The notes under the pieces: generated by a model
What the model was told of the DNA's origin: nothing
The model's input: only the letters and a program-made list of their open reading frames with translations
Databases searched by the model: none
Shown: positions 1 to 34,287 of the stretch, in pieces
How positions within the stretch are numbered: the stretch's first letter is position 1
Layout of the letters: every line of letters begins with the position of its first letter
DNA from: a virus
Virus record (IMG/VR): IMGVR_UViG_3300045988_128868
Coordinates: 1 to 38,916 of that record
Strand: one strand, 5' to 3'
DNA: 38,916 nucleotides
Made by a program: the position numbers and the translations under genes

Positions 1-52
1 TTTTTCATGGTCGGAGTGACGGGATTCGAACCCATGGCCTCTTGGTCCCGAA
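1..52 (-). repeat. attL core: displaced partial copy of the tRNA-Pro 3' part
   Basis: Identical to 38865-38916. Its reverse complement reads TTCGGGACCAAGAGGCCATGGGTTCGAATCCCGTCACTCCGACCA plus 7 nt. The flank at 53-90 cannot supply the 5' anticodon stem (GCTGT where CTTGG is needed) or an acceptor 5' strand, so this copy is truncated. Confidence 0.85.
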
Positions 53-154
53 ACAGCCGCATAGTATCTATATATAGAATTTTGCCGACACGGGCACAAT
101 ATATTGTATACCGACGCTTTCGCATGGCGATGAAAATGTAAGCGAAAATCCGCC

Positions 155-175
155 GTTACTACGGAATTACTACGG
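155..175 (+). promoter_or_regulatory. Putative integrase arm-type binding sites (tandem GTTACTACGG / ATTACTACGG)
   Basis: Two direct 10-mers at 155-164 and 166-175, just beyond the int stop codon. The same motif pair recurs in the right arm at 38771-38791. Confidence 0.5.
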
Positions 176-177
176 TT

Positions 178-1221
178 TTAAGATATCTTGGACATCTCTT
201 TTTGCAGGGTTTTATCCGACACCAAAGCGTAATATTTTAGCGTTGTGCTGTACTCTTCGTGACCGAGAATCATCTGGGTAGCCTCCGGGGTTACACCACT
301 TTCAACCATCATCGTTGCGCAGGTTTTACGGCAACTGTGAGGGGATAAGCGCCGTACTCCGATGGCATCAAGAGCACCATAATATTTTTTGCGCATGTAT
401 CCGGAGCTATAACCTGTACCGTCCTTTTTGCAAATCAATTTTTGACCACCGAGCTTTAATCTTGCCATGAGGTAGGGTTCTACGATTGGCAGTACCGGGA
501 CATGGCGGTTCTCTCCGGCTTCGGTCTTCAGACCGCCTATGAGCATTCTCTCTTTAATCAGATAGTCGTCTGGATTGAGCGCGAGCAATTCGGAGATGCG
601 GAAACCAGTGTAAATCAAAATTAATATGATATCTGCGTAGGGGACATTGTCCTCGGCGGCTTTCTTTATTTTCGCAACTTCTTCCTCTGTAAACGGGTGA
701 ACCTCGACTTTCTTTTTCTTTGGGAGTTTTAAAAATTTCGAGTAGTCCTTATAACAGATGTCGCGCTCCATCGCTATGTCGTACAGAACAGAAAACGATC
801 CTTTGATATATGACAATGAAGTTTTGCTTTGATTAAGATATGCATCAATACATTTCTGCATATCTTCCGTCCTTAATTCGCGGAACTTAATGCTTTTTAC
901 ATCTTCGGGGATCTTCTTCCATGCGGCGTTGTAGCAGTCCTTTGACTGCTTAGCCAGGTTCTTATATTCGGAACGAGAGAGCCACAAGGTGTGTAAGTCA
1001 TCGACAGTCATATTGATTTCAACTACCGGGTGTTCGAGGTAGTGAGCCAGAGCGGCTTTTGCCTCTTTGCTCGATGCGTAGTGCCCGAGGATTTCCTGCT
1101 TTTTAATCATCTTGCCTTGCTCGTCCAAGCTATAACTCGCCGGCAACGCGACGACCCAGGGACGCCGCTTGATATCCTTGCGTTTATATACGCTGCCTTC
1201 ACCGTTTTCACGCTTTGCCAT
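178..1221 (-). CDS. int: Tyrosine site-specific integrase
   Basis: 347 aa. Catalytic boxes are visible: TGFRISELLAL (Arg I), HSCRKTCAT (HxxR), LGHEEYSTTLKYY (His/Tyr). The gene is adjacent to attL. An AAGGAG RBS lies 11 nt upstream of the ATG. Confidence 0.93.
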   Translation of the reverse strand: MAKRENGEGSVYKRKDIKRRPWVVALPASYSLDEQGKMIKKQEILGHYASSKEAKAALAHYLEHPVVEINMTVDDLHTLWLSRSEYKNLAKQSKDCYNAAWKKIPEDVKSIKFRELRTEDMQKCIDAYLNQSKTSLSYIKGSFSVLYDIAMERDICYKDYSKFLKLPKKKKVEVHPFTEEEVAKIKKAAEDNVPYADIILILIYTGFRISELLALNPDDYLIKERMLIGGLKTEAGENRHVPVLPIVEPYLMARLKLGGQKLICKKDGTGYSSGYMRKKYYGALDAIGVRRLSPHSCRKTCATMMVESGVTPEATQMILGHEEYSTTLKYYALVSDKTLQKEMSKIS

Positions 1222-1227
1222 TAAAAA

Positions 1228-1264
1228 ATCCGCTCCTTTTCACTTGTGCTTTACCGGAGCGGAT
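1228..1264 (-). terminator. Terminator-like hairpin that contains the int RBS and ends at the int start codon
   Basis: A 9-bp stem pairs ATCCGCTCC (1228-1236) with GGAGCGGAT (1256-1264). On the minus strand it is followed by TTTTTTA and then the ATG. The loop is 19 nt, so the stem is only moderately stable. Confidence 0.4.
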
Positions 1265-1279
1265 GATATAATAATTATA

Positions 1280-1352
1280 TCAATCCACTCTATACGCATG
1301 GTGTGTGTTGATTCTCGAGCCCTCGGTGCTGGAACACCGGGGGTTCTTTTAT
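1280..1352 (+). ncRNA. Candidate ~70-nt small RNA (orphan promoter-terminator unit) between int and cI
   Basis: TTGTGC (1244-1249), a 17-nt spacer and TATAAT (1267-1272) on the plus strand. An intrinsic terminator follows about 45 nt downstream at 1317-1360. There is no RBS or plausible ORF in between. Confidence 0.25.
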
Positions 1353-1360
1353 TTATTTTC
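1317..1360 (+). terminator. Rho-independent terminator (plus strand only)
   Basis: A 12-bp stem pairs GAGCCCTCGGTG with CACCGGGGGTTC (two G-U pairs) around a 6-nt loop, followed by TTTTATTTATTTT. Confidence 0.6.
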
Positions 1361-1501
1361 CTTAAAGCGTCTCAGAACGCTTCAAATCGACTCAGGTTGT
1401 TTCTTGGAGATTATATATTCATTGGGTATGCATATTTTTAGCCTTTTTATCTGCAATTGCCCTTCATCTCACCGCGCTCAGATGGGCGACTGCTTTCTTA
1501 A

Positions 1502-2167
1502 TTAGTTTTTAATTATCTCTCTCACGAGGAGATAAGGAACGCCCAGGATGCGATAGTGCTCGAGATCCGTGCCGGTTAACTCTTTGGGCGGATATGACGG
1601 ATTGAGGGGGCTAAGCCTAACCATGTCATCAAAGATATCGATTCTCTTAAGGGTCGCACATTCGCCGTCGTAAATAACGGCACCAACATCCCCGCTGCGC
1701 TCAATAAAGGTTTGCCGAAGAATGAGGACTTTATCGTCAGTGTGGTATGTCGGGTACATTGAATCACCGTGTACCTTTAGAACAAAAAAGTCGGATTTGC
1801 TTCGTCCCTTGAGAAAAGAGCGCGGGACATCTATGGTTTCGCCGCTCCAATCCTCGACTGCAATTTCTTCATATCCGGCAGCAATATTGCCTATTACCGG
1901 GAACGTAACAACATCTTCGGTCACATTCGGAGAAACGAGATTTAGCGGCTTCATGGGAACATCTGCACCCATTAACCACGGTATAGATACATTTAAAATT
2001 TTTGATATTTCTTCAGTTCTTCTTTGTTTTGGTGCGTAGATTCCTTTTTTATAATTGCTTATTGTAGCGTCAGCGACATTCAATGCTCTCGCAAGTTCCG
2101 CTGCGGTCATATTTCTACATTCTAAAGCTTCGTTTAATCTTTCTGCAAAGCTCGGCATATTAATCAC
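1502..2167 (-). CDS. cI: CI-like prophage repressor, XRE HTH plus S24 (LexA-type) autopeptidase
   Basis: 221 aa. HTH is MTAAELARALNVADATISNYKKG. Also visible are the Ala-Gly site (IAAGY), the Ser motif GDSMYP and the Lys motif TLKRI. It is divergent from the cro-like gene. Confidence 0.92.
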   Translation of the reverse strand: MINMPSFAERLNEALECRNMTAAELARALNVADATISNYKKGIYAPKQRRTEEISKILNVSIPWLMGADVPMKPLNLVSPNVTEDVVTFPVIGNIAAGYEEIAVEDWSGETIDVPRSFLKGRSKSDFFVLKVHGDSMYPTYHTDDKVLILRQTFIERSGDVGAVIYDGECATLKRIDIFDDMVRLSPLNPSYPPKELTGTDLEHYRILGVPYLLVREIIKN

Positions 2168-2190
2168 CTCGCCTATACAATATCACAAAA

Positions 2191-2274
2191 CCAACGAAAA
2201 CGCAAGCAAAAATGAAAAAAACTTTTGAAAAACTTGTGAAAAGTATTGACTTGTGAAAACGCAAGTGATATAAT
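2191..2274 (+). promoter_or_regulatory. Immunity-region promoter (TTGACT-17-TATAAT) with CTTGYG-N4-CRCAAG operators
   Basis: -35 TTGACT at 2246-2251 and -10 TATAAT at 2269-2274, with an exact 17-nt spacer. The palindromic operator CTTGTGAAAACGCAAG (2250-2265) sits inside the spacer. Degenerate copies are at 2191-2206 and 2233-2248. Confidence 0.75.
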
Positions 2275-2300
2275 CGAACCAAAAGGAGGTGAAAGCGATA

Positions 2301-2507
2301 ATGTATGATTACTCGAATTTGCTCGGTGCAATGAGGCAAAGAGGTATAACCCAGAAAAGCCTTGCAAAAAGCATCGGAAAAAGCGAGGCGACGATTAACC
2401 GCAAGCTCTGCGGTGCCAGAGAGTTCACGCAAAGCGAAATGTTCAAAATACTCGAGATTATGGGCGAGCCGGTCGAAAGAGCCTCATTTTATTTTTTTAC
2501 TCATTGA
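2301..2507 (+). CDS. cro: Cro-like XRE-family HTH regulator
   Basis: 68 aa (MYDYSNLLGAMRQRGITQKSLAKSIGKSEATINRKL...). GGAGG lies 10 nt upstream of the ATG at 2301. The ORF-track GTG at 2289 lies within the RBS. Confidence 0.85.
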   Translation: MYDYSNLLGAMRQRGITQKSLAKSIGKSEATINRKLCGAREFTQSEMFKILEIMGEPVERASFYFFTH

Positions 2508-2524
2508 CTTGTTAAAACGCAAGT
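2504..2524 (+). promoter_or_regulatory. Distal copy of the -35/operator block (TTGACTTGTTAAAACGCAAGT)
   Basis: 20 of 21 nt identical to 2246-2266. It overlaps the cro stop codon and has no -10 element downstream. Confidence 0.5.
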
Positions 2525-2552
2525 TGCAAGCGACAAAAAAGGAAGTGAAGAA

Positions 2553-2729
2553 ATGAAAATTAAGAAAGCTTTTGCGCGTATGATGACATGCATACCCACA
2601 AAAGCCAAACCTAATGAGCTTGTTGCTTTCAGTCAGCCGCCATTCTGCAACGGCGGAAAACACTGCGGTAGGGACAAGAGCGGGCTGTGGCACTGTACCT
2701 GCATTAGCCAAAATAAGCCAAAGCGCTAA
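2553..2729 (+). CDS. Small Cys-rich hypothetical protein (58 aa, below the ORF-track cutoff)
   Basis: ATG preceded by AAAGGAAGTGAAG. Translation is MKIKKAFARMMTCIPTKAKPNELVAFSQPPFCNGGKHCGRDKSGLWHCTCISQNKPKR. Its 3' end overlaps minus ORF 2704-2892. Confidence 0.35.
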   Translation: MKIKKAFARMMTCIPTKAKPNELVAFSQPPFCNGGKHCGRDKSGLWHCTCISQNKPKR

Positions 2730-2892
2730 ATACTGCTGCGACAACCGAGGCTACCGTCGCCAATGCTGAAACCACAACAGTAATTATGAAGCGGTTGCGC
2801 TCCGTAATGGCTTTAGATGCGGGCGTTTCCTCAAGTTGATGTATTTCATCGACGCCCGGCAAATAGTAGCGTTTTCTCGACACATTATTCAC
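2704..2892 (-). CDS. Small membrane protein (C-terminal TM helix)
   Basis: 59-62 aa with a GTG start next to GAAAGGAAG. The C-terminal hydrophobic stretch is FIITVVVSALATVASVVAAVFSALAYF. It lies downstream of and co-oriented with 2966-3676. Confidence 0.45.
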   Translation of the reverse strand: MNNVSRKRYYLPGVDEIHQLEETPASKAITERNRFIITVVVSALATVASVVAAVFSALAYFG

Positions 2893-2965
2893 TTCCTTTC
2901 AAGGGAGTATATCACGCGAAAAGAAATAAATCAAGAAGGGAGGAAAAGAGGTGGACAACCCGCTG

Positions 2966-3676
2966 TTATTCAAAATATGTTTCGCTGTGGTAACCGGTGG
3001 CTTGGTCTTTGAAATCATTGCGCTGTGTGCAACTGCGAAAGCCAAAAGAAGAAAGAATGGTAATAATGCCAACCACAATGGTGATAAGCAATCCCAATTT
3101 TTGGGCGGAATCCCAGAATGCAGCCCTTTTCTTGTGGTGCTTGCTGTTTGGGCTGTCGTGGTTTGTGTCGCTATCATCACCACTACGTGATTCTTCTTGA
3201 GTCTTTGAAGCAGGTGCCTGTTGGATGCGGGAATCTTCGATGTTCTGCGCTGCGTTTGGTTCCGATAAAAACGGAATAGCAAGTGCTGTCATCTTCTTTA
3301 AAAAATCTTCTGCTTCTGCTTCTGTGAGACTTGAGGAAGAAATTGAAATGTAGCACTGATATGGAGTCTTATACAGAATGCTTTTGGTATCAAGATAAAG
3401 GTACGCGGACTCTTCGAGTGCGTTGGTACACAGGAGAGTTATAGACTTAAAAGGCGCACTGTCTGAAAAGTATTTCTTAAATTCCTCTAAAGTGTACCTT
3501 GTCTCATCGCTTATGTCACGACAGACAACTACGGTAGTTCGATAATTCTCCGATGCCGGAATCAGTGCGGTGTACTCATTTTCAATAGCCTTAAAAAGCT
3601 CAAGCAATGAAAATTTTTCGATTCTCCAGAAAGCAGATGCCGGGAGAGTAACATTCGTTGTTTTAGAAACTTGCAT
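2966..3676 (-). CDS. Tail-anchored membrane protein of unknown function
   Basis: 236 aa from MQVSKTT, with a GAGGTG RBS. It has a soluble N-domain of about 150 aa, a low-complexity acidic/Ser linker and a C-terminal TM (LGLLITIVVGIITILSSFGF). It has its own consensus-like promoter. Confidence 0.65.
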   Translation of the reverse strand: MQVSKTTNVTLPASAFWRIEKFSLLELFKAIENEYTALIPASENYRTTVVVCRDISDETRYTLEEFKKYFSDSAPFKSITLLCTNALEESAYLYLDTKSILYKTPYQCYISISSSSLTEAEAEDFLKKMTALAIPFLSEPNAAQNIEDSRIQQAPASKTQEESRSGDDSDTNHDSPNSKHHKKRAAFWDSAQKLGLLITIVVGIITILSSFGFRSCTQRNDFKDQATGYHSETYFE

Positions 3677-3702
3677 GACACACCTCAACATTTTTTGTTT
3701 TT

Positions 3703-3731
3703 AGTATATAAATTTCAAGACTAAAAGTCAA
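3703..3731 (-). promoter_or_regulatory. Sigma-70-type promoter for 2966-3676 (TTGACT-17-TATACT)
   Basis: The reverse complement of 3726-3731 is TTGACT and that of 3703-3708 is TATACT. The spacer is exactly 17 nt. Confidence 0.6.
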
Positions 3732-3748
3732 TATAAAGGAGCTACACA

Positions 3749-3922
3749 ATGAACAACATGCTAATAGCCGTTATAACATCAAGCGCAGTGACAATATTGT
3801 GGTTGAAGTGGTTTTGGTCTGCTGCGCAAAAAAAAATCGGTAAGCAAAACGAAGAGTTGGCTCGTATGCTCACCGAATTTGTTGAAAGGTATATCGAGAA
3901 AGTCATTAAAGACAGACATTAA
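3749..3922 (+). CDS. Small membrane protein (57 aa, not in the ORF track)
   Basis: AAGGAG RBS 7 nt upstream of the ATG. Translation is MNNMLIAVITSSAVTILWLKWFWSAAQKKIGKQNEELARMLTEFVERYIEKVIKDRH. Its 3' end overlaps the convergent Abi-like gene by 17 nt. Confidence 0.45.
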   Translation: MNNMLIAVITSSAVTILWLKWFWSAAQKKIGKQNEELARMLTEFVERYIEKVIKDRH

Positions 3923-4676
3923 TGAATGCCTCTCCGAATGGATTCAAGCAGGCTCGACCTTTTTCAATATATACTTTTCGCATTACATTGCTGAAGCTGT
4001 TTTGGAAAATTTCCAAGTTTTCAAATTCATCATAGCTTGTTGTGAGACTTGAACCATCAAAGCTTATGTCAACAAGTCCCAGGCGATCAAGGGATGTAAT
4101 TGATGTACTTTGCCTGCCTATATCGCCAATTTCCGAATTTGCAATGAATACATTTTGATGAAGAACGATGTGTACATTTGAAAAACCAGAAACCTTTTCC
4201 ATTTCGGCAGGCGGATTCCCGCAGATATTGACGATTGGGAGATTATGTGAGTTCTTAAAGCATTTCAAAGTGTAGGCATCGTCAGGGGATAGTTGCTTTA
4301 TTATTTCGACAAATGCCGGATGAACCGTATCAGCAGTATCTTTTTGCATTGCTTTCGCCAACAGATTGGCGAATAAGTCTCGTAATGTCTCATTGTCGGT
4401 AGTATAGGCGATTGCTTGTAATGCAGGCACTGCAACATAGGCTTCAGGAGTCTTTATTTGCTCAGGGTCAACATCTTTAAGCTTCTCTTCCAATAGCTTT
4501 TTTGTTGCCTTTAATGAGTACTCTCCGTTCAGCACATATTTTTCAAGAGGTGTCAAAGCAACGCCTATAGCACGAGGTAATAAACTGACAATCTCTCCGA
4601 TTCTTTTCGCCGACGGATGGACAAGATCATCGTAAGCTTTTTCAATCGTGTTGCCTAATCCAATGTTTGTATCCAT
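3906..4676 (-). CDS. Abi-alpha / DUF4393-like protein (candidate abortive-infection gene)
   Basis: 256 aa. The N-terminal AYDDLVHPSAKRIGEIV and central YVAVPALQAIAYTTDNETLRDLFANLLAKAM blocks match my recollection of the Abi_alpha (DUF4393) family. Local GC is low and the gene is oriented opposite to the early operon. Confidence 0.6.
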   Translation of the reverse strand: MDTNIGLGNTIEKAYDDLVHPSAKRIGEIVSLLPRAIGVALTPLEKYVLNGEYSLKATKKLLEEKLKDVDPEQIKTPEAYVAVPALQAIAYTTDNETLRDLFANLLAKAMQKDTADTVHPAFVEIIKQLSPDDAYTLKCFKNSHNLPIVNICGNPPAEMEKVSGFSNVHIVLHQNVFIANSEIGDIGRQSTSITSLDRLGLVDISFDGSSLTTSYDEFENLEIFQNSFSNVMRKVYIEKGRACLNPFGEAFINVCL

Positions 4677-4738
4677 TTATATCATATTCCTTTCTTTTGC
4701 CAATTGAAAACTGTTTCAATAAGCGAATATACAAATTA

Positions 4739-4767
4739 AGTATAACACATAAAAAGAAATAAAACAA
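4739..4767 (-). promoter_or_regulatory. Putative promoter for the Abi-like gene (TTGTTT-17-TGT-TATACT)
   Basis: The reverse complement of 4762-4767 is TTGTTT and that of 4739-4744 is TATACT, with an extended -10 TG. Confidence 0.4.
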
Positions 4768-4789
4768 CCGCGTGAAAGGAGCTTTGTAA

Positions 4790-5497
4790 ATGAACGAGTT
4801 AATCAAAATCAACTATGAAAGCGACAGACCTACGGTCTTAGCGAGAGATCTGCACGAATTTCTTGAGGTCAAAACCGCCTACAAGGATTGGTTCCCGAGA
4901 ATGTGCGAATATGGCTTTGCGGCAGGTGGGGATTTCAACCTGCTCAAAAATGAGCGGGTTCAGATCGAAGGTTCGAGAACTGTATCAAGAACTGTAGACG
5001 ATGCACAACTTACCATCGATATGGCGAAAGAGATCTGTATGCTTCAGCGCAACGAGAAAGGCAAGCAGGCGAGACAGTATTTCTTGCAGCTTGAAAGAGA
5101 GTGGAACTCGCCCGAAGCGGTGATGTCGAGAGCCCTCAGAATGGCTGAGGAAAGGCTTGAAAGATTCAAAGCTATAAACGCCAACCTCTCAGTTCAGAAC
5201 GCTATTATGCAGCCGAAAGCGGAATATTTTGACGGTCTGTGCGACCGTGAGAGTCTTACCGGAATCAGAGAGACGGCGAAGCTTCTCGGGCTGAAACAGA
5301 ATGACTTTGTAAAGTGGCTTATAGACCACAAATACATTTACCGCGACAAGCGCGGCAGGCTGATGCCCTATGCGGAACATGTCGATTCAGGGCTGTTCAC
5401 TGTCAAAGAGACATATAACGATAAGACCGACTGGACAGGCGTTCAGATGCTTATCACCGTCAAGGGCAAAGAACGCTTCTTGAAAGCGCTCTCGTGA
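4790..5497 (+). CDS. ant: Phage antirepressor (AntA/ANT N-domain plus KilAC C-domain)
   Basis: 235 aa. The N-terminal TVLARDLHEFLEVKTAYKDWFPRM and QARQYFLQLE blocks, and the C-terminal GIRETAKLLGLKQNDFVKWL block, are typical of the family. Confidence 0.85.
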   Translation: MNELIKINYESDRPTVLARDLHEFLEVKTAYKDWFPRMCEYGFAAGGDFNLLKNERVQIEGSRTVSRTVDDAQLTIDMAKEICMLQRNEKGKQARQYFLQLEREWNSPEAVMSRALRMAEERLERFKAINANLSVQNAIMQPKAEYFDGLCDRESLTGIRETAKLLGLKQNDFVKWLIDHKYIYRDKRGRLMPYAEHVDSGLFTVKETYNDKTDWTGVQMLITVKGKERFLKALS

Positions 5498-5512
5498 AAG
5501 GAGGAAAACACC

Positions 5513-5734
5513 ATGCGTAAAAAAATGGCACTTATGTCAGTCGACGAGGCGTCAATGTACCTGAGAGAGGTTATCTACATACCGCCGCATCAGATCCGTC
5601 TGCTCGCGAGGGAGGGAAAATGCACCTTCTGTATCGCGCTTCAGCACTCAAGCGGAGGCTGGTCGTACTACATCCGCCTTGACAAGCTCGAACAGTTCAA
5701 GCGCGGGGATATCGGATTGATGACTGAGCGGTGA
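5513..5734 (+). CDS. Hypothetical; possible Xis/MerR-like small DNA-binding protein
   Basis: 73 aa with AAGGAGG 7 nt upstream. The segment MSVDEASMYL...IRLLAREGK resembles excisionase-type HTH. Functional assignment is weak. Confidence 0.6.
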   Translation: MRKKMALMSVDEASMYLREVIYIPPHQIRLLAREGKCTFCIALQHSSGGWSYYIRLDKLEQFKRGDIGLMTER

Positions 5735-5758
5735 ATTGAAAGAAAGAGAGGTTTAACA

Positions 5759-5914
5759 ATGGCACTGAAATTTGCAATCCAGACGGTATTTGAAATCGCC
5801 GCCGTCGTACTTATCATCTATGGCTTTTGCCGTGAGGACAAGCTCATAGCCTTCGAGGACAGGCTCAAAGCAAAAATCAGAAAGGAGGTAAAACACCATG
5901 AAGAAAAAGATTAA
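5759..5914 (+). CDS. Small membrane protein (51 aa, not in the ORF track)
   Basis: GAGAGG RBS. Translation is MALKFAIQTVFEIAAVVLIIYGFCREDKLIAFEDRLKAKIRKEVKHHEEKD. It overlaps the next start and is preferred over antisense ORF 5753-5968. Confidence 0.5.
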   Translation: MALKFAIQTVFEIAAVVLIIYGFCREDKLIAFEDRLKAKIRKEVKHHEEKD

Positions 5915-6236
5915 GGTCATAGTAAAAGACCCGGAAAAACCTGCAAGAGTGGTGTGGATATCAAACACGCTGGAGAACCTGCAGAAAACGGTCGGCGGTT
6001 ATATCGAAACCGTCACGATATCGACGGACGCCGTCATTATTTGTAATGAAGAAGGTAACTTGTTAGGACTGCCACACAACTGTAGATTTTGCGGATGCGA
6101 TTTTGTCGGAACAATCATCGTTGCCGGCGTGGACAAAGACGAATTTTGCAGTCTGTCAGATGAGGTTATTAAATTGCTGAAACCGTGCATAAAGGAGGTG
6201 CCTGAACATGAAAAAGTCAACGACAGGGGAATTTGA
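5898..6236 (+). CDS. DUF3846-like protein
   Basis: 112 aa. The ENLQKTVGGYIE...ICNEEGNLLGLPHN pattern is recalled from DUF3846 proteins of phages and conjugative elements. Confidence 0.6.
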   Translation: MKKKIKVIVKDPEKPARVVWISNTLENLQKTVGGYIETVTISTDAVIICNEEGNLLGLPHNCRFCGCDFVGTIIVAGVDKDEFCSLSDEVIKLLKPCIKEVPEHEKVNDRGI

Positions 6237-29244: not shown

Positions 29245-29850
29245 TCAGTCCACTTTTTCACCAAGTGCTCTGGAAATCTGCAAATATTGTCCGTCTTGGA
29301 CAGTGATATATGCATTGTTGCTGAAGTTATCGTTAGCAACGATATTATCGCCGTAATTGTACGAACTCGACAGCACGGCGTAATAACCGTCGTTTCCCGC
29401 CTCAGTGGCAACGAGCTTGTACTCTCCGGCGGGAATATCCTTTCCAATCTTATAAACCCCTTCGAGCACGGCGGAACTGTTGAAGTGCATGTCCGGAGCT
29501 TTTTCCGAGGAACACATTTCTGCCCGTGTAATTTCTATGTATTCGCCGTCCTTGACAGTGGCATAAACCCAAGTGTCAAAGTTTTCGTTAAAAATAATCG
29601 AATCTCCGGAACTGTCGGACGACACACAGAAATATCCTGAATAATCTTTTTCTGTGGCGATTATCCAGTATTCTCCGGCGGGAATGTCTTTTCCAACCTT
29701 GTACATTCCCTCGCCGTAATGGTCATTCGGCAAATCTACTTTGCTGATATTATCTGGAGTAGTGGGGGAGTTGATGGTTGTAGAATTGCCGCATCCACAG
29801 AGCCCAATCAGCATAATACCTGCGATAAGTAAAGCAATAAATTTTTTCAT
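29245..29850 (-). CDS. Lipoprotein with two tandem ~68-aa repeat domains (moron)
   Basis: 201 aa with signal/lipobox MKKFIALLIAGIMLIGLCG|C. The repeats are YKVGKDIPAGEYWIIATE... and YKIGKDIPAGEYKLVATE... . It is the only minus-strand gene in the structural module and has its own promoter. Confidence 0.85.
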   Translation of the reverse strand: MKKFIALLIAGIMLIGLCGCGNSTTINSPTTPDNISKVDLPNDHYGEGMYKVGKDIPAGEYWIIATEKDYSGYFCVSSDSSGDSIIFNENFDTWVYATVKDGEYIEITRAEMCSSEKAPDMHFNSSAVLEGVYKIGKDIPAGEYKLVATEAGNDGYYAVLSSSYNYGDNIVANDNFSNNAYITVQDGQYLQISRALGEKVD

Positions 29851-34273: not shown

Positions 34274-34287
34274 GGAGGTGCTTGCAT

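Follow-up and report, generated by a model that had tools for sequence, protein, structure and literature searches.

A variable slot between cro and the antirepressor gene of a human-gut temperate phage, carrying an Abi-alpha gene and two uncharacterised membrane-protein cargos

The virus record IMGVR_UViG_3300045988_128868 (IMG/VR), analysed here over its whole 38,916-nt stretch (the window, whose positions are used for all slot coordinates), reads as a complete temperate phage or prophage of ~38 kb. Between its cro-like gene and its antirepressor gene (ant) lies a group of genes that face against the lytic direction, and the locus raises the question of whether these genes form one defence system or are separate cargos that share a site. 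The original prediction suggested the former, an undescribed multi-gene membrane-associated defence module around a gene resembling abortive infection (Abi) gene Abi-alpha. We find that the region is of a known kind and not a new multi-gene system: it is a prophage accessory or defence hotspot, with a known single-gene Abi and two membrane-protein cargos that are uncharacterised. The slot would consist of three independent, counter-oriented transcription units, an explanation that as a whole we consider likely. Interval 2525-4775 is itself, with good probability, a recombination-prone accessory (moron or defence) slot running from cro to the antirepressor gene of a temperate siphovirus-like prophage; the putative host, as part of the same reading, is probably a Clostridia-type bacterium of the human gut. 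The open reading frames (ORFs) at issue are as follows, with ribosome-binding sites (RBS) and transmembrane (TM) segments where they were found.

3906-4676, minus strand: Abi-alpha (DUF4393), 256 aa, soluble; cargo of cassette C (Pfam, PADLOC, PHROG)
2966-3676, minus strand: 236-aa tail-anchored protein; cargo of cassette B (RBS GAGGTG; alignment; AlphaFold2 model)
2704-2883, minus strand: 59-aa tail-anchored membrane protein; cargo of cassette A (codon-position pattern, hydropathy)
3749-3922, plus strand: 57-aa ORF with N-terminal TM segment and charged helix (RBS AAAGGAG; convergent with abi, 17-nt overlap)

All the ORFs named in the original prediction were found, and so was the low GC content that it described: 0.41 for 2553-4767 against 0.487 for the window, at the 4th percentile among windows of the same size. 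The low GC lies mostly in 3200-4800, with cassette A (2553-2934) at 0.463. The description of the locus as counter-oriented genes with three membrane proteins stood in part, since the Abi, 236-aa and 59-aa genes are indeed counter-oriented, while the third membrane protein, that of the 57-aa ORF, is encoded on the lytic strand.

Gene neighbourhoods in related loci (L numbers) speak to whether the genes belong together. In blastn comparisons, homology to related phages stops at 2524-2559, beyond cro, and starts again with Abi-less relatives at position 4775. The whole region occurs, 100% identical, in several human-gut metagenomes and in two different replication-module backbones. Breakpoints divide it into three blocks (2562-2934; 2964-3759, the block homologous with L016; and 3735-4798). 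Cassette C takes in the convergent 57-aa ORF as well as Abi-alpha. Abi homologues that are 96% (L021-28), 83% (L029) or 78% (L030/31, L204/205) identical are never beside the 236-aa gene; they lie counter-oriented just past cro in phages with different integrases and repressors. Conversely, Abi-alpha never adjoins homologues of the 236-aa protein, which range from 86 to ~25% identity and occur alone (L012, L015), with a DUF2513 gene (L007-11) or with a KTSC gene (L016-20, and the remote L203). The 59-aa gene is found in L021-28 (74% identity) on the opposite side of abi. The Abi, 236-aa and 59-aa genes thus assort independently across diverged genomes, and the co-conservation expected of a multi-gene system, whose absence from related prophages the original prediction had named as grounds for refutation, is not seen.

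The slot behaves as the variable hotspot that had been proposed: among loci whose cI and cro genes share 76-98% identity with those of the window, at least five different contents were seen. The core of the abi cassette (3927-4774) is an insertion/deletion. Its place in L199-202 and L207-210 is taken, with the same junctions (on one side where the 57-aa ORF ends, on the other the RBS region AAGGAGCTTTGTAAATG), by a 41-aa ORF and a 78-aa helix-turn-helix gene, both on the lytic strand (L199 2850-3500; L207 520-1190). In the Abi-less L206 (879-908) the last 10 abi codons can be recognised within the final part of the small ORF (E=0.16 at 70% identity, which is not significant); taken at sequence level this arrangement suggests a deletion or replacement with its breakpoint just inside abi.

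Could Abi-alpha and the membrane proteins nevertheless be the interdependent parts of one new membrane-associated defence system? The genes are adjacent and co-oriented, the region is conserved without change in several metagenomes and two phage backbones, and no terminator separates the 236-aa gene from the 59-aa gene, all of which would suit such a system. None of the more distant relatives examined, however, keeps the whole set together; a conserved promoter precedes each of the genes separately, and abi also has a terminator to itself; Abi-alpha alone suffices in Enterococcus faecalis (PMC6356687); and PADLOC models the candidate that it matches, PDC-S47, as a single gene. We regard a single interdependent system as highly improbable, and to judge from the gene neighbourhoods it is largely refuted.

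The three-unit explanation draws on the predicted transcription signals of the slot, which are listed here.

4739..4767, minus strand: portable promoter module TTGTTTTATTTCTTTTTATGTGTTATACT, predicted to drive abi (pattern search)
4704..4719, no strand assigned: perfect 16-nt palindrome TTGAAAACTGTTTCAA in the abi 5′ leader, between promoter and RBS (sequence)
3827..3880, minus strand: intrinsic terminator of the abi transcript, antisense within codons 27-44 of the 57-aa ORF (RNA fold)
3703..3731, minus strand: promoter of the 236-aa gene, TTGACT-17-TATACT (promoter scan, 10/12 matches)
2906..2934, minus strand: portable promoter module TTGATTTATTTCTTTTCGCGTGATATACT, predicted to drive the 59-aa gene (pattern search)
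2549..2606, minus strand: intrinsic terminator, long hairpin and U-tract, predicted to stop minus-strand transcription from B and A short of cro (RNA fold)

The 29-nt module TTGWTTTATTTCTTTTNNNGTGWTATACT, common to abi and the 59-aa gene, has two copies in the window against 0 expected. It also precedes the DUF2513 and KTSC genes in related loci (L007 ~6840, L016 ~7004, L033 ~4221). With Abi-alpha and the 59-aa TM protein this makes at least four unrelated cargos, all counter-oriented, that share one promoter module, at which recombination may also exchange cassettes. The near-consensus TTGACT-17-TATACT promoter claimed for the 236-aa gene was recovered at 3731..3703 on the minus strand, and it is kept in five loci whose proteins are 53-86% identical, with -35 TTGACTTTT, a -10 of TATACT or TATAAT and the RBS GAGGTG. 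Independent promoters, as originally proposed, are therefore upheld as predictions of the sigma-70 type, their motifs being conserved across diverged homologues. The abi terminator is a strong hairpin with U9 (region z-score -3.1) and its stem covaries in L029 and L030; in the terminator at 2549-2606, L021 retains both stem and T-tract, with base changes. No terminator was found in the window between the 236-aa stop codon and the 59-aa promoter, whereas stand-alone 236-aa homologues have one, so that unit B probably reads into unit A here. The palindrome TTGAAAACTGTTTCAA is not significantly over-represented; it is identical in L021, is not conserved in L029 and L030, and could be an operator or an mRNA hairpin.

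The marks of a moron, namely promoter and terminator of its own, deviant composition and presence/absence among relatives, are all found in the abi cassette and in the 59-aa cassette. The 236-aa cassette has the promoter and the polymorphism, and lacks a terminator of its own in the window.

In the three-unit explanation, unit C would run from its portable promoter (4767-4739) through Abi-alpha (4676-3906) to the intrinsic terminator (3880-3827). Unit B would run from its promoter (3731-3703) through the gene of the 236-aa tail-anchored protein, with no terminator of its own, and unit A from its portable promoter (2934-2906) through the gene of the 59-aa tail-anchored protein to the terminator at ~2606-2549. 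All three would be expressed in the lysogen from sigma-70-type promoters. Abi-alpha would act alone, like EF2833, sensing or perturbing the late or lysis stage of a superinfecting phage, so that the infected cell would die or lyse early, and the 236-aa and 59-aa membrane proteins would be separate cargos.

The identity of the Abi protein is the firmest part of this account. By profile comparison the 256-aa product is clearly a member of Abi-alpha/DUF4393, which confirms the assignment first made from its sequence: it matches PF14337 (Abi_alpha) with 165 bits against a cut-off of 29 (E=2.8e-48, profile 3-196/196), PADLOC PDC-S47 (best hidden Markov model PDLC05025, residues 9-256, E=3.2e-75, with PDLC05024 and PDLC05026 matching too) and phrog_2232 (E=1e-51). 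No hydropathy window exceeds 1.6 and there is no further domain. The AlphaFold2 (AF2) model shows a single helical/beta fold (pLDDT 79) whose sole Foldseek/PDB match is the uncharacterised 3H35, a match reported likewise for EF2833 (PMC6356687); a sequence search found no relative in PDB. The family is large, with 407 homologous clusters at E<=1e-10, mainly from Clostridia. A single-sequence search of genome contigs found no close relative of the Abi protein, and a profile search of genome contigs found relatives at <=55% identity, mostly 34-44% and mostly in metagenome-assembled genomes of Clostridia. The neighbours of Abi-alpha vary among 98 lineages, which argues for no obligate partner gene.

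Abi-alpha is defined by EF2833 of E. faecalis V583 prophage 6, the founder of PF14337/DUF4393 (Lossouarn et al. 2019, PMC6356687). When EF2833 was cloned by itself behind its native promoter, plaquing of the picovirus Idefix was abolished; the efficiency of centre of infection (ECOI) was lowered, infected cells were killed and lysis came ~10 min earlier (PMC6356687). The gene has a mapped transcription start site of its own, and its homologues lie mostly on Firmicutes prophages (PMC6356687). The window's protein is like EF2833 in belonging to the same Pfam family over its full length (a profile-level comparison), in size (256 vs 272 aa) and in being soluble; both genes are prophage-encoded, with their own promoter, counter-oriented to the lytic genes and with neighbours that vary between phages. 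They differ in host (Enterococcus vs a putative gut Clostridia-type bacterium) and in the terminator, which in the window's clade is embedded in a convergent small ORF; Abi activity is shown for EF2833 only, and for the gene considered here there are, from sequence, a prophage context and a conserved sigma-70-type promoter with an extended -10.

A second comparison is with gp17/A0EWI8 of Staphylococcus phage phiNM1 and with 80alpha-like phages, whose proteins belong to the same DUF4393 family at ~34% identity over 64% of the query. The phiNM1 gene too is counter-oriented within the early region, and its high expression in lysogens is a phiNM1 feature: there the DUF4393 protein makes up 42% of prophage protein and is the most abundant one (bioRxiv 10.1101/2025.10.23.684294). 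Unlike the window's gene it lies in the replication module, not beside cro; its nearest annotated convergent gene is 105 nt downstream, and an ORF scan shows only an unannotated 38-aa ORF that overlaps the abi stop by 8 nt. The PDC-S47 definition resembles the window's cassette in the HMM match and in describing a candidate of a single gene. As an observation apart, an Abi_2 (PF07751) gene lies at L029 10713-11696, just beyond the integrase end of this Abi-alpha prophage and in its host, which suggests a clustering of Abi genes around the integration site.

Several points weigh against three independent units with a known Abi at their centre. The closest cultured-phage relatives of Abi-alpha are just ~33% identical. 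In PADLOC, PDC-S47 has only the status of a candidate system, and a literature search found it mentioned in no paper. The 236-aa and 59-aa genes are probably co-transcribed here, which leaves room for a local functional interaction. Finally, in the window's Abi clade the 57-aa ORF always accompanies abi with a 3′ overlap of 17-20 nt, and there is room for a functional link between these two as well.

The 57-aa ORF is probably a real early gene, going by its conservation. Its RBS AAAGGAG is present in all homologues, its hydrophobic and WLKWFW motifs are conserved, and the codon-position differences in the TM part, which lies outside the terminator, are 9/3/15, 9/8/11 and 13/6/14, with the coding-like order pos2 < pos1 < pos3. 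It might form a functional pair with Abi-alpha, in which, after induction or infection, the peptide gene, driven by the lytic promoter, would silence abi by antisense or interference and/or the peptide would neutralise Abi-alpha, to give self-immunity or counter-defence; a 3′ overlap like that of a type I toxin would be a variant of this idea. Constancy within the clade favours the pair, as every Abi homologue at 100-78% identity, on at least eight backbones, has the ORF in the overlap just described, and in L029 and L030 abi and the 57-aa ORF are the sole DNA in common with the window. With the abi terminator inside the ORF, the two mRNAs would be complementary over ~95 nt. Small ORFs of the same build, a TM segment plus a charged helix, also converge on Abi-alpha proteins of ~30-40% identity (Streptococcus agalactiae Javan35, S. 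pneumoniae IPP23, L037, L085, L138 and L139), and hhalign gives 71% probability between two of the small-ORF groups.

Other observations speak against the pair. The terminator embedded in codons 27-44 forces the physical linkage of the ORF and abi, and so already accounts for it. L199-202 and L207-210 carry the ORF intact in the absence of abi, and in L206 the protein P0150, which is identical, occurs with and without abi. A credible small ORF converging on the stop codon was found in only ~19 of the 98 Abi lineages, and these ORFs represent four or more mutually unrelated types (TM plus helix, coiled-coil 'MWIxKK', 36-aa and 2-TM); homology among them is weak (hhalign 71% and 41% probability), and PHROG annotation places them in groups of unknown function only. 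EF2833, moreover, is active alone. Other cargos of the slot have small convergent neighbours too, which overlap the DUF2513 and KTSC genes by a few nt and follow the 235-aa gene after a 112-nt gap. From these comparisons we conclude that the interleaving of cargos and small ORFs follows from the insertion of backward-facing cassettes into an early operon of compact layout, with no specificity for Abi, and we consider a functional pair unlikely. As an obligate partner of Abi, the 57-aa ORF was rejected, being intact without abi and having analogues beside other cargos. The likeness to type I toxin-antitoxin systems consists in the small TM peptide and the predicted ~95-nt 3′ overlap with the abi mRNA; a promoter scan found no promoter of the ORF's own, and there was no Rfam antitoxin match.

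A wider proposal would have Abi-alpha cassettes wired to a lytic-strand gene for a small membrane peptide that houses the abi terminator, recurring from gut Clostridia to streptococcal prophages. Separately, it would see in the START-like, tail-anchored 236-aa family a new protein of exclusion or defence that is specific to the cro-proximal slot. We think this improbable. If it were true, early transcription and translation of the peptide gene, on induction or in a superinfecting relative, would leave abi silenced by antisense and/or supply an anti-Abi-alpha peptide, a built-in switch for self-immunity or counter-defence. In the three-unit explanation, which we consider likely, the 57-aa gene would instead belong to the early operon and merely abut the abi cassette.

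How the early operon is reached across the slot can be considered from the lytic promoter.

2246..2274, plus strand: PR-like lytic promoter (PR), TTGACT-17-TATAAT with TG (promoter scan, 11/12 matches)

Between PR and ant (2275-4790) the promoter scan found no plus-strand promoter better than 9/12 matches, and no convincing plus-strand terminator was found between 2275 and 4790. The slot holds a plus-strand gene with an RBS (the 57-aa ORF), and in relatives the early genes begin right beside the cargo promoters (e.g. L007). Together these features indicate that PR transcripts probably cross the slot head-on, antisense to the cargos; after induction they would have to do so to reach the 57-aa gene and ant. 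Such antisense read-through, as originally proposed, is plausible and might silence the cargos. A conceptual parallel for a prophage that spares its own lytic cycle from its own Abi is the BstA-aba self-immunity of Salmonella prophage BTP1, in which aba is a DNA element inside bstA; the two have no sequence relationship, and the antisense or peptide route in the window is hypothetical.

We turn to the membrane-protein cargos. The 236-aa ORF is tail-anchored as predicted, with one hydrophobic segment at residues 194-212 of 236 (TM helix ~190-212). Alignment shows an alpha/beta N-domain (1-140), a variable disordered polar linker, a basic juxtamembrane stretch, the TM helix and a short tail. The N-domain (~140 aa) is conserved, with motifs that include EEFKKxFSDS and SSSLTExEAEDFL, and by the positive-inside rule it would be cytoplasmic. 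This predicted topology, with the large N-terminal domain inside, differs from that of the classical superinfection-exclusion (Sie) proteins. Right after the TM helix (residues 213-216, window ~3029-3040) a (K/R)SC motif, RSC here, is kept in the remote homologues P0135, P0136 and P0139, and its exposed cysteine may be functionally important. The AF2 model has moderate confidence in the N-domain only (pLDDT 57-89 there). Foldseek returned weak START/Bet v 1-like matches (E ~1e-3, TM-score 0.2-0.4), which we take as a hint only; no assignment to that fold was made.

The family is tiny, with 11 clusters at >=53% identity and 12 matches among 1.84 billion representatives. Its members, the remote L203 included, are found in prophages only and always in this slot and orientation. 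The products of 236, 59, 57 and 58 aa have no usable family in Pfam, PHROGs, PADLOC or NCBIfam, in keeping with the earlier statement that the partners of the Abi gene have no recognisable family, and the 236-aa and 59-aa proteins match no known Sie family in Pfam, PHROGs with function, PADLOC or NCBIfam. The most plausible roles of these two proteins are in superinfection exclusion, defence or lysogenic conversion, exerted at the membrane's cytoplasmic face. For the 236-aa protein, we infer from the site of its gene, its promoter and its membrane anchor that it could be a moron for exclusion or defence. It is possible, though doubtful, that the 236-aa gene (the 59-aa gene perhaps likewise) has nothing to do with defence against phages: it would then serve lysogenic conversion or prophage maintenance, for example by acting on a host membrane process or the lysis-lysogeny circuit. 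The lack of similarity to any PADLOC defence model, a fold hint limited to a weak START/Bet v 1-like ligand-binding domain and the company of the non-defence-looking KTSC and DUF2513 cargos would agree with this. Its position next to the immunity region, counter-orientation, strong constitutive-type promoter and membrane anchor are, on the other hand, typical of Sie and Abi morons, as in lambda rex/sieB, the gp15 moron of HK97 and, in lactococcal P335-type prophages, the sie genes of the lysogeny module. The family is also restricted to prophages, with even a remote homologue in the same slot.

For cassette A, an ORF with a C-terminal hydrophobic segment is present as described, at 2704-2892 on the minus strand. 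It spans 62 aa there, and the GTG at 2883 is the likelier start, giving the 59 aa that gene callers chose, with the hydrophobic segment spanning residues 33-51. In comparison with its homologue in L021, which is 74% identical in aa sequence, codon-position differences of 10/6/42 show strong purifying selection on the gene. An ORF on the opposite strand was rejected as a gene.

2553-2729, plus strand: 58-aa Cys-rich ORF, complementary to the 3′ untranslated region and terminator of the 59-aa gene; probably not a gene

Although this 58-aa ORF has a conserved Cys motif, its codon-position differences vs L021 (21/19/23) show no coding bias, and it overlies the conserved minus-strand terminator.

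Among known systems, the slot as a whole is closest to morons and prophage defence hotspots, of which the HK97 gp15 moron, lambda rexAB/sieB, lactococcal Sie2009 in the lysogeny module and the P2/P4 hotspots are examples. It shares with them autonomous units of promoter, gene and terminator, GC below that of the surrounding genome, presence or absence between near-identical phages, a place beside the immunity region and membrane-anchored cargos. It differs in lying inside the early lytic operon downstream of cro, with cargos that face the lytic promoter head-on, and in the reuse of one 29-nt promoter module for at least four unrelated cargos. The locus adds a gut-Clostridia example to a known picture, in which temperate phages keep swappable defence cargos beside the immunity switch, and its central gene has already been described as a single-gene Abi. 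Three details, prospects that are not yet established, may be of use to specialists: the 29-nt promoter module would be a cassette 'plug' that unrelated cargos can reuse; the head-on arrangement of lysogen-expressed cargos and small early lytic ORFs could make Abi-alpha interference or self-immunity experimentally approachable; and the tiny, slot-specific tail-anchored 236-aa family is a reasonable candidate for a new exclusion factor.

The genes and operators that surround the slot, with the holin of the late region, are these.

178-1221, minus strand: integrase (gene content/Pfam)
1502-2167, minus strand: cI repressor, S24-type (gene content/Pfam)
2249-2266, plus strand: operator copy 1, 18-nt palindrome ACTTGTGAAAACGCAAGT, overlapping PR (palindrome search)
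2302-2507, plus strand: cro-like gene, DUF739/HTH_3, left border of the variable slot (Pfam)
2507..2524, plus strand: operator copy 2, ACTTGTTAAAACGCAAGT, directly after the cro stop codon (pattern search)
4790-5497, plus strand: antirepressor, AntA + ANT, right border of the slot (Pfam)
36896-37243, plus-strand region: holin (gene content)

Downstream of the island almost all genes are on the plus strand (antirepressor, replication, structural, holin, NlpC/P60 lysin). The cI/cro operator palindrome has two copies in the window vs 0.1 expected. The second is accompanied by a -35-like TTGACT with no usable -10 after it; by analogy, it could be a distal operator for repressor looping, comparable to the OD site of TP901-1, or a roadblock. 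A similar palindrome was noted in L012 at the 3′ end of a 228-aa gene.

ARAGORN found no tRNA in the window, and no regulatory RNA family was matched in the island when positions 1-6000 were scanned against Rfam. The minus strand at 8-55, beside the integrase, gives a weak tmRNA-like match (E=0.02 with 13.7 bits, under the gathering threshold; ARAGORN calls neither tRNA nor tmRNA here), which may be an att-site remnant of a tmRNA or tRNA 3′ end. Farther along, the distal tail genes are separated from a 922-aa tape-measure-like gene by a counter-oriented 201-aa ORF (29245-29850, minus strand), which has neither a Pfam match above threshold nor a PADLOC match and is possibly a further moron. Directly upstream of the holin, in the lowest-GC part of the window (~0.39), a 670-aa protein (34282-36294, plus strand) with a Y_phosphatase3 domain (E=1.5e-23) is an unusual cargo of the late region.

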